IMG/VR virus record: IMGVR_UViG_3300011152_000015
Location: 1-64,000 of that record
Direction: 5' to 3' (one strand)
Origin: a virus
Taxonomy: Duplodnaviria; Caudoviricetes
DNA: 64,000 nucleotides
Program-made: the position numbers and the translations under genes
The notes under the pieces: model-generated
The model's input: the letters and a program-made list of their open reading frames with translations, nothing else
The model's database searches: none
What the model was told of the DNA's origin: nothing
Shown here: piece by piece, positions 3,137 to 33,715 of the stretch
Layout: each line of letters starts with the position of its first letter
Numbering within the stretch: the first letter of the stretch is position 1

Positions 3137-3162
3137 AAAAAAAATCCCGCACTAGCGGGATT
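3137..3162 (-). terminator. Intrinsic terminator-like hairpin upstream of the endolysin
   Basis: AATCCCGC-N4-GCGGGATT followed by a T run on the minus strand. Confidence 0.75.
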
Positions 3163-3247
3163 GAACAGGCTGCGCCGCCCTGTTTGCGTAGAAGTGGGCG
3201 GGCTGCTAGGTTCATGATGCCAATTCGGCATCACAGGGAGACATCAG

Positions 3248-4223: not shown

Positions 4224-5686
4224 GCTGCCACCGTTTGGCCGATCACGATCCATTCGTTCGCGGCAACTTTTTTCAGGGTTACGGTCATACGCGCCGTCAT
4301 GTTTAGCGTGCCGCCTGATTGCGGCTCAAGCACGACGCCACTGGCGGAAGCCAGAGTGATATTGCCGACCGAGCGAATAGTGATCTCGGTTCCGATCTCG
4401 AAAGCGACAGCCGCGTTGGTTGGAACTGTTAGGGTGATGGCGCCTGTCGTTGCTGGGCGCAGTAAGTTCCAGGCGTCGGTCAGGGCTAGCGTGCGGGTTG
4501 TGGCGGTGCCGATGACGGCGGACTTGTCCTGCTTGGTGGCGGGGTCGAAGTTGCCGGTGTGCCAGAGTTCTTGCCAGTCGGTGAACACGCTACCTGACCA
4601 CGACCGCACTGCAACTCGATTCAGGTTGACCCCCCCGCCCATAAGCATTTGCAGGCCGTATGCCGTGCCTCCGCCAGCCACCAACACAACATGACGACCT
4701 TGCCCCCAGCCGGAGGGCAACGGAGTCAGGCCCGCACCAGGGGTTATGAACCCACCGCCGATCGTGTACAGGTTTAGGTTGGCCTCTGCGCTGACGCTGA
4801 CGCCACCTACCCCAAACAACGCCATCGCAGCCTTAACATGCGCCGTAGTAGCAATCGAGGTGTCTCTATCTTCGGCAGCCGGTGTTGGGGCCGTGGGGTT
4901 GCCCGTGAACGTAGGGCTGTTGAGGTCGGCCTTCAGCCCCAGCTGCGCCTGAATCTTCCCGAACGCCGACAACACGGTATCCACCGCCGTGATCGCCGTC
5001 GACACTGCCATGCTCAGGCCGGTCAGCAGCGTGTTCCGTACCCGATGCTCGCTGAAGTAGAGGTTCGTCGAACCTTCGGCCAGCGCGTCCGTGGTACCTG
5101 GCGAGGGGTTGATCTCGGCGTAAACAGAGCCGGTCCAGCGGTACTGGCGAGTGGGGTTCGCCTGGGTGCCCTGGTTGACGGCGATGTAGATTTTCCCGCC
5201 CTCGCCCGTTGCCGGGAAGTCGTCGCGGGTCGGGAACTCCAGCACGTCGTCGACGTAGCTCGGTAGCTGGCTGGACGGGATGCGCGCGTACTCGTCCAGC
5301 GTGGCCACGCCACCGGATACGCCGCGCTCGGTTGTGTCGATCTTCTCGGCCAGCACCGCCTGTAGGCCGCTGACGGTATCGATCGCCTGGGTACCGGTGT
5401 GCGTGGCGCGGTCGCGCAGCTGGGCGTCGGTGGCGTTGGCCGTGGCGCCCGCCTCGATACCACCGAGCTTCGCGCGCTCGGCATCGGTCATCAGCGATTG
5501 CCCTTCGGCCTTGTCCACCTTGCCGGCCAGGCCCAGCGCCGCGTTGGCGGGGTAGCCCACGATCATGCCCGAGCCGTTGGTGACGTAGACATCGTGCCCC
5601 TGCCCGGCGCGCACGTAGTAGATGGCATCGGGCTCCAGCACGGCCGGCAGCGCGGCCACCACCTTGTGATGTTTTACTGTGGCCAT
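4220..5686 (-). CDS. Tail fibre / receptor-binding protein
   Basis: LRDRATHTGTQ, QLPSYVDDVLEF, SPTFTGNPTAPT and WQELWHTGNFDP fibre motifs. Confidence 0.85.
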   Translation of the reverse strand: MATVKHHKVVAALPAVLEPDAIYYVRAGQGHDVYVTNGSGMIVGYPANAALGLAGKVDKAEGQSLMTDAERAKLGGIEAGATANATDAQLRDRATHTGTQAIDTVSGLQAVLAEKIDTTERGVSGGVATLDEYARIPSSQLPSYVDDVLEFPTRDDFPATGEGGKIYIAVNQGTQANPTRQYRWTGSVYAEINPSPGTTDALAEGSTNLYFSEHRVRNTLLTGLSMAVSTAITAVDTVLSAFGKIQAQLGLKADLNSPTFTGNPTAPTPAAEDRDTSIATTAHVKAAMALFGVGGVSVSAEANLNLYTIGGGFITPGAGLTPLPSGWGQGRHVVLVAGGGTAYGLQMLMGGGVNLNRVAVRSWSGSVFTDWQELWHTGNFDPATKQDKSAVIGTATTRTLALTDAWNLLRPATTGAITLTVPTNAAVAFEIGTEITIRSVGNITLASASGVVLEPQSGGTLNMTARMTVTLKKVAANEWIVIGQTVAA

Positions 5687-15398: not shown

Positions 15399-15424
15399 AA
15401 AAAAAGCCCGCTTCAGCGGGCTTT
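15399..15424 (-). terminator. Intrinsic terminator after the moron
   Basis: AAAGCCCGC-N4-GCGGGCTTT with T run on the minus strand. Confidence 0.75.
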
Positions 15425-15431
15425 GGCAAAT

Positions 15432-16031
15432 TCATCTGGCGCATAGCTTTTGCCATGTCGCCTCAAACTGGTCGTCTGGCATGTCACCTTCCATGAAGGC
15501 GAGCCCTCCGCCCGATGCCACATAACGTACGAAACCGTTATAAGCACCGAATGAGTTTTTTGCATTTACTTCCCCGCAGGGAATTCCAGCCGGTCCGACA
15601 AATTGGTTTCTGAACCTGGCTGACTCTGCATCCTTGAGCCTGTCCTCAATGGCGCGCTGCCCGACACGATTAATCGCGTACTCATTGGGCGGCTCAGCCT
15701 TCCGTGCTGAGGCGGGCTGCTCGTCACCGCGCTGAGTGAGCATCACAATTCCTGCAACCACTGCAAATACTAAAACCGCGCGCGCAAAAAAATGGCTTCG
15801 GAAGAACGCTTCTAATAGCGACCAACTCAGTGATACTGACCGTGCCACGGGCTTGGAAGCCGCACCGATCTTGCGCTTCCGCTCATCCCGCTCCGCAGCC
15901 CGATAAAGGATCTCTGCCTTTTTTGCCCGGGCTACCACCGCCTTTTCATAGTAAGCCCCGCATGATGGGCACTGAAGCGGGCTGCCAAATGCAGCTTCAT
16001 CCTCAATGTGATTACAGGCCGGACACTGCAT
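15432..16031 (-). CDS. Moron: Zn-ribbon plus TM plus periplasmic domain protein
   Basis: CPAC...CPSC, one TM helix, CGEVNAKNSFGAYNGF motif; flanked by hairpins; less GC-biased than neighbours. Confidence 0.8.
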   Translation of the reverse strand: MQCPACNHIEDEAAFGSPLQCPSCGAYYEKAVVARAKKAEILYRAAERDERKRKIGAASKPVARSVSLSWSLLEAFFRSHFFARAVLVFAVVAGIVMLTQRGDEQPASARKAEPPNEYAINRVGQRAIEDRLKDAESARFRNQFVGPAGIPCGEVNAKNSFGAYNGFVRYVASGGGLAFMEGDMPDDQFEATWQKLCAR

Positions 16032-30940: not shown

Positions 30941-31154
30941 GACGCACCCCCGCATCCAGTTTATCCAACAAGGTCTGGCAGTCGATGCACGTCTGGCAGC
31001 CCGGTGCTGCTTCGCGTCGAGCCTGCGGAATCTCTACGCCGCACTCCTCGCAATGCGTAGCACTCGGCCCGGTCGGCAGCTGCGCGCGGCGCGCCAAGGC
31101 CACCTCCAGCAGATACTCGGCCTGCTCATTGCCGCGGTCGATTACATCAGCCAT
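30933..31154 (-). CDS. TraR/DksA C4-type zinc finger protein
   Basis: MADVID, CEECG..IPQARR..PGCQTCIDCQ. Confidence 0.92.
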   Translation of the reverse strand: MADVIDRGNEQAEYLLEVALARRAQLPTGPSATHCEECGVEIPQARREAAPGCQTCIDCQTLLDKLDAGVRRG

Positions 31155-31650
31155 GGGTCACCTCCCCTTCTGCAACGGCCTCGAGCATCGCCAGCTCCGC
31201 CCCGGCCACGATGCCCAGCAGCTGAGCCACCACCTGGTTGGCGTGGTAGCGCAGCGCCTCCACCTCGTGGGGCAACCAACGGTCGTCGGCCACCCCCTCA
31301 TGCAGGCTCTGCACGAAGTCGCCCTTAGCGCGCATCACCTGGGCCAGCCCCTTCAACGCCTCGCGCGAGGCGCGAACCGGCACCGGCACATACGCCACCG
31401 CACCGGCCGGGCGCACCAAGGCCGCCAGCAGGCGCGGGTCCCGCGTGGCGGCCACGATCTCCTCCAGGAACTCAGGGTGGATGGGGCGGTTGTTGTTCGG
31501 GCTGACGCGCTTGTTCAGCTCGTCCGGGTCCATGCCGATGGTCAGCGCCACCGCATTCTGGCCCCCTGTTGCGTCGCGCGTGGCGCGGTACAGCGCCTGG
31601 CGGGTGTTCAGCACCGGGCCAGCGCCCGGTAATAGATCCTTGCGACTCAT
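31147..31650 (-). CDS. Phage regulatory CII-family protein
   Basis: GGQNAVALTIGM..LNKRVSPN HTH; located downstream of cro. Confidence 0.75.
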   Translation of the reverse strand: MSRKDLLPGAGPVLNTRQALYRATRDATGGQNAVALTIGMDPDELNKRVSPNNNRPIHPEFLEEIVAATRDPRLLAALVRPAGAVAYVPVPVRASREALKGLAQVMRAKGDFVQSLHEGVADDRWLPHEVEALRYHANQVVAQLLGIVAGAELAMLEAVAEGEVTHG

Positions 31651-31995: not shown

Positions 31996-32256
31996 TTATG
32001 CGCGGCGCTCGCCTTGTCGGCGTTCGTTCTGACGGCGATCCCCATCGCGTCGCTCAACGCGCGGATCCGCCGCAATACCGCCTTCCGCCAGCTCTTGTGC
32101 GTAAAGAGCCTCGATTGCCTTTCCAGTGGTGTATCGGATATCCGCGCCATTAAGCGCCCGATGAATCGTCGGCTGGGTGGTTCCCACCGCGTCGGCGATC
32201 GAGCCTTGCGAGTAGCCAAGTTCCACCAGTCGCTCAATCATCTTTTTGATTTTCAT
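31996..32256 (-). CDS. Cro-like HTH repressor with Arg-rich ERR/DRR tail
   Basis: SQGSIADAVGTTQPTIHR HTH; divergent from cI. Confidence 0.9.
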   Translation of the reverse strand: MKIKKMIERLVELGYSQGSIADAVGTTQPTIHRALNGADIRYTTGKAIEALYAQELAEGGIAADPRVERRDGDRRQNERRQGERRA

Positions 32257-32268
32257 CGCCTCTATACC

Positions 32269-32346
32269 TATGCGCATTCGCATTAAACTCGATAATACGC
32301 GGACGTATTAAATGAATCAATACACTTGCCTATACGTTTACGAATC
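32269..32346. promoter_or_regulatory. Three operators between cro and cI
   Basis: TATGCG-CATT-CGCATT (32269), AATACG-CGGA-CGTATT (32294), TATACG-TTTA-CGAATC (32331). Confidence 0.8.
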
Positions 32347-32356
32347 GGGCACGGAC

Positions 32357-33022
32357 ATGAACATAGGCAAGCGGCTTGCAGCCATGCTGGAGGAGCTCGA
32401 CTGGTCCGAAGGTGAGCTCAAGCGACGATCTGGCGTGCCGCAGCCCACCATCCATCGGATCATTACCGGCGAGTCTCAGGACCCCCGGCAAGGCAACGTT
32501 GAAAAGATCGCCAAGGCGCTTGGAGTAACTGCTCATTGGCTCCGCCATGGCGGCTCGAGGGACCAGAGCGTCAAGGAGGATATTGCGCTCTATGCTTCCA
32601 ACGTCGAGCCCGGCCCACCGATCACCAGCCCGTATCGCGCCATTAAGATCGTAGGCACAGCACAGATGGGCAACGAAGGCTACTGGTACGCCCTGGACGA
32701 GGCGGAAGGTTATATCGACGTACCGTCGCGTGATCCTGATGCCTACGCGCTACGGCTGAAGGGGCACAGCATGGCCCCAGCGATCAAAGATGGATGGCTG
32801 GCAGTAGTTGAGCCGAACAGCCCTCTGGTTCCGTTTGAGTACGTGATGATCCGCCTGCATGACGGCGAGTCCATGGTGAAAGAGCTTCTGCGCGCTACCG
32901 AAGATGAGGTGCTTGTAGGCTCCGTTAATAGCGAGTACGGGCGGCGCACGATTCCTACCGATCAGATCGAGCAGATCCACTATGTCGGCGGCATTGCTCC
33001 GCCCAGCAAGATTAGGCTTTGA
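32357..33022 (+). CDS. CI-like repressor (HTH plus S24 autopeptidase)
   Basis: ELKRRSGVPQPTIHRI; KGHSMAP serine; MVKEL lysine. Confidence 0.95.
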   Translation: MNIGKRLAAMLEELDWSEGELKRRSGVPQPTIHRIITGESQDPRQGNVEKIAKALGVTAHWLRHGGSRDQSVKEDIALYASNVEPGPPITSPYRAIKIVGTAQMGNEGYWYALDEAEGYIDVPSRDPDAYALRLKGHSMAPAIKDGWLAVVEPNSPLVPFEYVMIRLHDGESMVKELLRATEDEVLVGSVNSEYGRRTIPTDQIEQIHYVGGIAPPSKIRL

Positions 33023-33063: not shown

Positions 33064-33088
33064 AAGCCCCGCACCTAGCGGGGCTTTT
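33064..33088 (+). terminator. cI terminator
   Basis: AAGCCCCGC-N5-GCGGGGCTTTT. Confidence 0.8.
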
Positions 33089-33103
33089 GATAAGCGATAC
33101 GAC

Positions 33104-33121
33104 TGTAAGCCATCACCTACA
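33104..33121 (+). promoter_or_regulatory. GacA-box-like upstream activating sequence
   Basis: TGTAAG-CCATCA-CCTACA versus consensus TGTAAG-N6-CTTACA (one mismatch), ~60-75 nt upstream of the GGA-rich RNA. Confidence 0.75.
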
Positions 33122-33177
33122 GCTGGCGTCATGATCAAGCCGTATCCGGCTCCGATCATTTCGATCATAGTTCGCTC

Positions 33178-33294
33178 GCAATAGCGCAGGACGCGCCCCG
33201 GGCCTGGAGGGCCGATGGACCACCGCGTGGATCGCGGAGCTTGGAGCACCGGGACAACAGCATCAATTCAGCCCCGCCTCGTGCGGGGCTTTTT
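33178..33294 (+). ncRNA. RsmX/RsmY-like CsrA-sequestering sRNA
   Basis: Seven GGA in ~70 nt, three in hairpin loops (GCGC-AGGAC-GCGC, GGCC-TGGAG-GGCC, CCGCG-TGGAT-CGCGG); terminator 33270-33294; 5' end estimated. Confidence 0.8.
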
Positions 33295-33420: not shown

Positions 33421-33440
33421 TACTGTATGGACATACAGCA
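33421..33440. promoter_or_regulatory. LexA (SOS) box
   Basis: TACTGT-ATGGACAT-ACAGCA upstream of ORF 33455. Confidence 0.88.
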
Positions 33441-33454
33441 GTAAGGAGCTTCTA

Positions 33455-33715
33455 ATGCCTTGGACACAGGCTCGCGCCATCACCCACCAGAGACATATTT
33501 CCAGCTACAACCGCCTGCTCCGGCGGGTGAACCATCTAATCACCACGCCACGCGCCAGGGCTGAACGCCAGGCGAACCTAGCCCGCCATCCTGACGACCG
33601 GCCCGAAGATTGGGAGCGCCTCTTGGATGAGATTCAGCAAACCGAAGGCGTCTCGATGACGCTTCGGTCGGACGGCAGCATCCATGTCCGATGGTTATCA
33701 GTCGAAACTTGTTGA
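33455..33715 (+). CDS. DUF1654-like protein
   Basis: SSYNRLLRRVNHLI...DWERLLDEI...DGSIHVRW; AAGGAG RBS. Confidence 0.75.
   Translation: MPWTQARAITHQRHISSYNRLLRRVNHLITTPRARAERQANLARHPDDRPEDWERLLDEIQQTEGVSMTLRSDGSIHVRWLSVETC

Follow-up and report, generated by a model that had tools for sequence, protein, structure and literature searches.

The stretch of DNA analysed here (the window) comprises 64,000 nucleotides (nt) and represents the first 64 kb of a 91-kb provirus record of IMG/VR (IMGVR_UViG_3300011152_000015). We focus on a short segment directly downstream of a cI-type repressor gene, in which a GacA-box-like palindrome and a -10 hexamer precede a predicted small RNA (sRNA) of the Rsm type with seven GGA motifs, the whole being bracketed by two intrinsic terminators. 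The features of this segment are the following, with the repressor gene that precedes them:

32312 to 33022, + strand: cI-type repressor gene with HTH_3 and Peptidase_S24 domains (Pfam PF01381, PF00717).
33066 to 33088, + strand: upstream intrinsic terminator, GCCCCGC-ACCTA-GCGGGGC-TTTT, ending cI transcription (sequence reading).
33104 to 33121, + strand: GacA-box-like palindrome, TGTAAG-CCATCA-CCTACA, with one mismatch to TGTAAG-N6-CTTACA.
33122 to 33165, + strand: 44-nt spacer between the box and the -10 hexamer.
33166 to 33171, + strand: -10 hexamer, CATAGT.
33178 to 33294, + strand: predicted Rsm-type sRNA of about 115 nt with seven GGA; the 5' end is inferred from the -10 hexamer and the 3' end is the U-run.
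33184 to 33196, + strand: hairpin 1 of the RNA, GCGC/AGGAC/GCGC.
33201 to 33213, + strand: hairpin 2, GGCC/UGGAG/GGCC.
33223 to 33237, + strand: hairpin 3, CCGCG/UGGAU/CGCGG.
33271 to 33294, + strand: intrinsic terminator of the sRNA, GCCCCGC-CTCGT-GCGGGGC-TTTTT, marking the right-hand boundary of the cassette (sequence reading and terminator scan).

The cI gene is the upstream neighbour of the RNA, is transcribed in the same direction, and has its stop at 33022. A first-pass annotation of this DNA had proposed a prophage-encoded sponge RNA with a GacA box of its own at this place, and the elements on which that proposal was built, i.e., the box, the seven GGA coordinates, the three 5-nt loops, and the two terminators, were each confirmed by reading the sequence. 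We consider it likely, from the arrangement of these elements and from the comparisons given below, that positions 33066-33294 constitute a "moron" cassette that is complete in itself, running from one terminator to the other, and that a lambda-like Stutzerimonas prophage carries in its immunity region. The terminator scan reports only the terminator at 33271-33294, because the one at 33066-33088 is followed by four T residues and the scan requires five. Both terminators share AGCCCCGC...GCGGGGCTTTT and differ in the 5-nt loop only. Together they make up a direct repeat with about 20 matching bases, which, as a speculation, could favour gain or loss of the cassette by recombination.

Relatives of the element were obtained through a protein search of viral contigs with cI, which led to a covariance model (R1) that was run over pattern-seeded loci. 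Among the contigs retrieved with cI, L005-L007 carry the same RNA, and L008 and L009 have a cI that is 98% identical, with different DNA after it. At least 16 distinct promoter-plus-RNA variants (13 distinct RNAs) were found in IMG/VR contigs and in two copies in Stutzerimonas nitrititolerans GL14, and three further distinct copies occur in three other Stutzerimonas genomes. The variants differ by 9-49% in the RNA, and the window RNA scores 145-148 bits on our own models, R1 and R2. The patterns used for viral contigs and for genome contigs were loose, and among the matches listed most are chance GC-rich sequences. For the genome-contig pattern, only L199 and L231 are real among the matches listed, both in one Stutzerimonas genome, and the pattern matches in Pseudomonas sp. 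FEN and MWU13-2100 were rejected, as they show no match to the model. Weak model matches (19-23 bits) also lie just upstream of the RNA in L115, L253, and L059, and these are attributed to the similar upstream terminator and not to a second gene.

The palindrome at 33104-33121 is the single match to the GacA-box pattern (at most one mismatch) in the 64-kb window, for which 0.01 matches are expected, and one of 100 shuffled sequences gave any match. The consensus of this box, TGTAAG-N6-CTTACA, has been previously described (PMC11837529, PMC8523701). The box is recognisable at the same position in all 16 variants, in the form [T/C]GTA[A/C]G-N6-..TAC[A/G], and variants L014 and L115 carry the perfect TGTAAG-N6-CTTACA. 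The spacer that follows is exactly 44 nt long in every one of the 16 variants and is otherwise divergent in sequence, and the -10 hexamer reads CATAGT in 15 variants and CATTAT in the remaining one. No sigma-70 -35/-10 pair was called at the cassette promoter by the promoter scan, the -35 position reading TATCCG, which is not usable. Gac-dependent rsm promoters reportedly lack a -35 element as well, according to work on P. protegens. A CGTATC-like hexamer is conserved at the place of the -35 (33141-33146 in the window), being CGTATC in most variants and showing one or two changes in a few, and it may represent either an atypical -35 or an additional site for protein binding.

The spacing between box and -10 is also that of the chromosomal Rsm promoters of the host genus. 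The rsmY promoter of the host (G001) combines a perfect box with a box-to-(-10) spacing of 44 nt, as counted on the promoter sequences, and a manual count gave the same spacing in the promoters checked of chromosomal rsmX and of an unclassified Rsm-clan paralogue, hereafter group 2. The GacA-type promoter put forward in the first-pass annotation is therefore upheld as far as its layout is concerned, the 44-nt spacing being equal to that of the rsmY and rsmX promoters of the host genus. A role of the palindrome as an operator of cI was ruled out, because the box is unchanged next to cI alleles of 100, 73, 56, and 51% identity, and it is present even where there is no adjacent cI.

In the body of the RNA, the GGA triplets start at positions 33189, 33206, 33217, 33229, 33236, 33243, and 33252, and three of them lie inside 5-nt loops. 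Seven GGA in a body of 93 nt are reached nowhere else in the window on either strand (mean of 1.12 per 93 nt). Dinucleotide shuffles of the body contain 3.0 +/- 1.2 GGA, with only one in 2000 reaching seven. Six to seven GGA are found at fixed positions in all 16 variants. These variants have no open reading frame (ORF) in common, whether in start, frame, or length, and a reading of the segment as a small-protein gene was ruled out on this basis.

The hairpins that present these motifs were evaluated by comparison of sequences. Hairpin 1 shows G-C to A-U compensation in three variants, and the closing G-C of the sRNA terminator likewise becomes A-U in three variants. In hairpin 2, none of the 14 phage-type matches shows a change in the three inner pairs or in the GGA, the outer pair being either G-C or G-U, and in hairpin 3, 95% of the cells are paired in the phage-type sequences. 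Over the phage-type set as a whole, 93% of the stem cells are paired, with compensations in hairpin 1 and the terminator, and RNAalifold, applied to the phage-type alignment, recovers hairpins 2 and 3 and the terminator unaided. We also used a wider alignment of 38 sequences of all three types, spanning phage-type, island, group-2, and rsmX sequences. In this alignment, 94.5% of the cells are paired versus 28-54% in slid controls, and 12 of the 20 pairs of the hairpins and terminator are compensated, a number that none of 500 shuffles reaches. Compensatory changes affect all four pairs of hairpin 2, and all five pairs of hairpin 3 covary. Towards the 3' end, the last third of the RNA lacks structure and varies among the variants.

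With permissive thresholds, the Rfam model of RsmY (RF00195) aligns to positions 33175-33292 over its entire length (model positions 1-121 of 121) at 30 bits, versus a gathering score of 57, corresponding to E = 1.7e-5 for the region searched and E = 6.9e-7 for the 91-kb record. On the same model, sister copies reach 24-41 bits. On the rsmX model (RF02144, gathering score 56), the window RNA stays below its 30-bit RsmY score. The RNA of L010, located in the same place in a phage whose cI is 73% identical, matches rsmX with 35.9 bits, and genuine Stutzerimonas rsmX copies score 73-85 bits. The likeness to RsmY pointed out in the first-pass annotation consequently holds for the full-length alignment, including the first hairpin and the terminator, and does not extend to membership of that family. 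The RNA is not filed as RsmY because 30 bits falls short of the gathering score of 57, and it is a member of neither RsmY nor rsmX under the Rfam definitions, its sequence being nearer to rsmX and group 2 than to RsmY. The mean identity of the phage-type RNAs is about 60% to group 2, 54% to rsmX, 44% to RsmY, and 43% to RsmZ. A tree of these short sequences has rsmX (99/99) and group 2 (96/90) as separate, supported groups, and the island copies nest among the phage copies. Two other weak matches in the window were discarded, i.e., a 16.5-bit RsmY match at 15402-15520 (- strand), which consists of the 3' end of a coding region plus its terminator, and a 12-bit match at 3141-3215.

The comparison with RsmX, a GacA-dependent titrator of RsmA/RsmE in Pseudomonas and Stutzerimonas (RF02144), reveals a common design. 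Both RNAs have a length of about 110-120 nt, three hairpins with GGA loops, single-stranded GGA plus an intrinsic terminator, and a promoter consisting of an upstream palindrome, a 44-nt spacer, and a -10 without a -35. Both open with a GCGC-AGGA(N)-GCGC hairpin, which is present in nearly all rsmX and group-2 RNAs, with the last base of the loop varying. On the other hand, the phage RNA is only about 54% identical to Stutzerimonas rsmX, falls on a separate branch, and resides on prophages and islands, while rsmX occupies a conserved, often tandem, chromosomal locus. In many Stutzerimonas genomes, two or three chromosomal rsmX copies are separated by distances of about 0.2-3 kb, frequently about 1 kb (e.g., L279:513-623 and 1501-1614; G033:C30:12428-13532). 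RsmY is the best Rfam match and shares with the phage RNA the GCGCAGGA(A/C)GCGC hairpin, the CCCCGC terminator, and the 44-nt promoter spacing. However, the identity to the host RsmY is about 44%, and a genuine RsmY (70-82 bits) is found elsewhere in every Stutzerimonas genome checked.

The nearest chromosomal relative is group 2 (e.g., L269-L276, L316), with 56-66 bits on R2 and about 60% identity. Group 2 has the first hairpin, the 44-nt promoter geometry, and the terminator type in common with the phage RNA, but it is longer (128-132 nt), carries a variant box, TGTAGG/CGTAAG-N6-CTGACA, and has other stems in hairpins 2 and 3. Group 2 appears to occupy conserved positions in the chromosome, which in at least one genome are close to tRNA genes, and it appears to be an uncatalogued chromosomal paralogue. 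The RNA lies at about 1501-1631 of each locus, contains at least six GGA-type motifs, and scores about 26-30 bits on Rfam RsmY, below the Rfam thresholds; matches in the group-2 score range occur in many Stutzerimonas species. About 500-610 nt past the end of the group-2 sRNA, three species show sub-threshold matches to Group I introns (37-39 bits, cut-off 50; L269:2242-2430, L272:2135-2291, L270:792-980).

Several observations weigh against the interpretation of the phage element as a functional Rsm-type sponge. A search with the RsmX, RsmY, and RsmZ models, as suggested in the first-pass annotation, yields the permissive, end-to-end RsmY alignment described above, and no part of the window reaches an Rfam gathering score, the scores being far under it (30 versus 57; 35.9 versus 56). 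The box deviates from the consensus at one position in the window and at two or three positions in some variants. A single GGA (AUGGA) fits the ANGGA form, and AGGA is present once. The minimum free energy (MFE) fold gives the single sequence no significant stability beyond that of shuffled sequences (z = -1.15), and the MFE structure lacks hairpins 2 and 3 as drawn. The hairpins rest on comparative evidence. Covariation inside the phage-type set is thin, amounting to two pairs, and the 38-sequence alignment was fitted to the model's own structure and leans towards it, although its controls are still far lower.

Such Rfam scores below threshold, together with the finding that the closest relatives of the RNA are chromosomal RNAs of the host genus, could also suggest that the RNA is the decaying, no longer functional remnant of an rsmX-like gene of the host, taken up by a phage and now hitch-hiking. 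We regard this as very unlikely. Variants that are 9-49% different have all kept the box, the -10 at exactly 44 nt from it, and the stems with six to seven GGA, and compensatory stem changes occur inside the phage-type set, while the sequence of the spacer and the 3' third of the RNA drift. Because motifs and stems are preserved and compensated against this background of drift, we infer purifying selection on a working gene. Taken together, the sequence comparisons indicate that the element is a stand-alone conserved non-coding gene, with an rsmX-like architecture and a promoter laid out like Gac-type promoters of the host. We are fairly confident that it encodes a non-coding RNA of about 115 nt of the RsmX/RsmY kind, i.e., a predicted GacA-driven sponge carried by a phage. 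The sequence-level predictions of the first-pass annotation agree with this, as box, -10, GGA motifs, hairpins, and terminator are conserved in the 16 variants.

The distribution of the element was further evaluated with model R2. In 67 Stutzerimonas species genomes, the mobile type scores 88-145 bits (four genomes), group 2 about 56-66 bits, and rsmX about 40-54 bits. Over all comparisons with R2, chromosomal rsmX copies of Stutzerimonas span 36-54 bits. In a sample of 151 genomes of the family, R2 matches at E <= 1e-12 were obtained only in genomes that are also in the Stutzerimonas set. A blastn search with the cassette gave no match in GenBank phages or in PLSDB plasmids, so the cassette is absent from the sequenced isolated phages and plasmids of these two collections. 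The S. nitrititolerans genome G001 holds two slightly different cassette copies on very short contigs, C42 (1494 bp) and C36 (2348 bp), which points to the presence of two related prophages, with the assembly interrupted at the sequence that they share.

The genes and sites surrounding the cassette and its repressor gene in the window are the following:

31147 to 31650, - strand: cII gene, divergent, left of cI.
31996 to 32283, - strand: cro-like gene, divergent, left of cI.
33421 to 33440, + strand: LexA (SOS) box before the DUF1654 gene and outside the RNA, TACTGTAT-N4-ATACAG, with one mismatch.
33455 to 33715, + strand: DUF1654 gene (PF07867, 72 bits), the usual downstream neighbour of the cassette.

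The RNA is found between cI and DUF1654 with cI alleles of 100, 73, 56, and 51% identity, and the DUF1654 gene follows it in L049, L059, L094, L115, L253, and L256. The content of this slot varies. In L010, two small ORFs precede the cassette, and in L009, whose cI is 98% identical, the slot holds a GNAT acetyltransferase and an SNase-type nuclease instead. In other phages, the cassette is preceded by a DUF1828 gene, a BstA-like gene, or a repressor with a ParA-like gene, and is followed by an SNase nuclease. In L065, the gene directly preceding the cassette (4264-5205, - strand) is a BstA-like abortive-infection gene (phrog_6287, E = 2.8e-92), and in L086 a ParA-like gene takes that place. 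The high-scoring chromosomal copies are located in accessory DNA, i.e., next to genes for a Type ISP restriction enzyme and a fragment of an integrase in L311, among unannotated genes in L313, and beside a serine recombinase, UmuDC, SRAP, SNase, and an Arc-like repressor in L314.

Where loci have different neighbours, their shared sequence extends from the upstream terminator, or from about 10-15 nt ahead of the box, to the sRNA terminator, which gives a cassette unit of about 190-230 bp. In most relatives, the upstream terminator marks the left boundary of the cassette, and it also stands 5' of the box in loci with other upstream genes (ParA-like, DUF1828). Like the morons known from phages, the cassette is equipped with a promoter and terminator of its own, lies between conserved genes next to the repressor gene, and is present or absent among phages with near-identical neighbours. 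It differs from usual morons in that the cargo is a non-coding regulatory RNA and not a protein gene, and in that its promoter appears to depend on a two-component regulator of the host.

Since phages keep regulatory RNAs in the immunity region, and since the 3' third of this RNA is unstructured and variable, the RNA might instead act by base pairing or as a cis element of the phage (an antisense RNA, an insulator between cI and DUF1654, or a leader of DUF1654), with the GGA motifs and the palindrome being incidental. This seems very improbable to us. What is conserved are the GGA triplets and the hairpins, with no contiguous seed, and the single-stranded 3' third diverges freely. The cassette also occurs with unrelated neighbours and on genomic islands without phage genes, a strong terminator separates the RNA from DUF1654, which has a LexA box of its own, and the architecture is common to chromosomal rsmX.

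The lysogen S. nitrititolerans GL14, with its two cassette copies, encodes RsmY (70 bits), rsmX (76 bits), RsmZ (98 bits), RsmA (91 bits), and a second CsrA homologue. The prophage RNA copies of GL14 are therefore extra, as the canonical RsmX, RsmY, and RsmZ are already in the genome, which is what the first-pass annotation had anticipated for a lysogen. The phage itself carries a gene resembling csrA at its lysis end:

1975 to 2199, - strand: divergent CsrA-like ORF of 74 amino acids (PF02599, 23.3 bits, cut-off 27).

This ORF opens the possibility that the RNA is a dedicated partner of the prophage protein, forming an Rsm circuit of the phage that does not act on the host RsmA. The same prophage encodes both elements, the CsrA-like ORF has GGAGGA in its ribosome-binding region, the complete record G076 has both as well, and any GGA sponge could in principle bind a CsrA-like protein. 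We nevertheless judge such a dedicated circuit quite unlikely, given that gene and sRNA are independently inherited. The CsrA-like protein is absent from five complete or near-complete sRNA-positive records (G069, G077, G078, G079, G081), and G071 (complete, 49 kb) encodes a CsrA-like protein 97% identical to it with no sRNA anywhere, its best R2 match being 23 bits. Among the related virus records, G076 alone has both the gene and the sRNA. An obligate pairing of the two was ruled out by this co-occurrence pattern, and the connection to the phage protein that the first-pass annotation had drawn is not supported, because the two are inherited separately. Complementarity of the sRNA to the leaders of the phage csrA-like gene and the host rsmA gene is no better than that of shuffled RNA, with 76% and 93% of the shuffles, respectively, pairing at least as well. 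G076 contains a second copy of the CsrA-like ORF, 48% identical.

The phage probably adds an extra RsmA decoy to its host, as the RNA is built like the host RsmX and RsmY and has the same GacA-type promoter layout. Based on what is known of the Gac/Rsm pathway (PMC7366521, PMC11837529, PMC9928087), we propose the following scheme. The host GacA, phosphorylated by GacS at high cell density, would bind the palindrome at 33104-33121 and would activate the promoter with its -10 (CATAGT) and no -35, as at the host rsmX and rsmY. The predicted transcript would stop at the intrinsic terminator and display seven GGA, three of them in pentaloops of short GC-rich hairpins, as sequence and comparison indicate. 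These motifs would then bind dimers of host CsrA-family proteins, i.e., RsmA and possibly the second homologue. The RNA would in this manner enlarge the RsmX/Y/Z pool and relieve RsmA repression, and the lysogen would shift further towards a Gac-on state. The benefit to the phage is a matter of speculation and might lie in lysogenic conversion of biofilm formation and secondary metabolism, in tuning of Rsm-controlled anti-phage defence, or in coupling of phage physiology to the density signal of the host.

RNAs of this kind, and the way in which they act, are familiar. The novelty lies in the lineage, which is distinct, stays under every Rfam threshold, and moves as a cassette with temperate phages and islands. 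In the full-text literature searched, which excludes subscription journals and hence does not prove novelty, we found no phage- or plasmid-encoded Csr/Rsm sponge RNA. RsmM-type CsrA/Rsm protein alleles have been described on P. aeruginosa phages (PMC7366521), and the plasmid-encoded RsmQ takes over host behaviour (PMC9928087), neither study reporting a sponge RNA on a phage or plasmid. As with RsmM-type alleles and RsmQ, a mobile element here inserts an extra component into the Gac/Rsm post-transcriptional network of the host. However, those components are RNA-binding repressor proteins, whereas the cassette would provide an antagonist RNA that acts in the opposite direction and is wired to GacA. 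If so, the phage sponge RNA would push the global switch on which the mobile CsrA/Rsm proteins act in the opposite direction, and it would escape both protein-based annotation and Rfam at its thresholds.

We lean somewhat towards the broader proposal that temperate phages of Stutzerimonas spread a GacA-responsive Rsm-sponge cassette of about 230 bp as a non-coding moron. This would be the first virus-borne Csr/Rsm antagonist RNA wired to a density-sensing two-component input of the host, and the global translation of the lysogen would be re-tuned, possibly including its defences or prophage decisions. The cassette would offer a compact, testable case of a prophage that uses the GacS/GacA input of its host to drive a moron. 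Gac/Rsm has been linked to the control of CRISPR-Cas and phage resistance in other gammaproteobacteria (PMC8450108, PMC8523701). Modulation of host defence is one testable idea, because of these published links and of the defence-type morons (BstA-like, nucleases) in the neighbourhood. Since the cassette is found among such morons, it may be relevant to the protection that prophages confer. With multiple rsmX copies, an unclassified chromosomal paralogue, and a mobile lineage, Stutzerimonas has more Rsm RNAs than the curated families cover.

The DUF1654 gene is probably SOS-induced, as the LexA box lies directly upstream of it. The window contains three LexA-box matches (443-462, 1274-1293, and 33421-33440), where 0.03 would be expected, and a perfect LexA box is situated between a UmuD-like gene (1-426, - strand) and an SRAP gene (527-1231, + strand).

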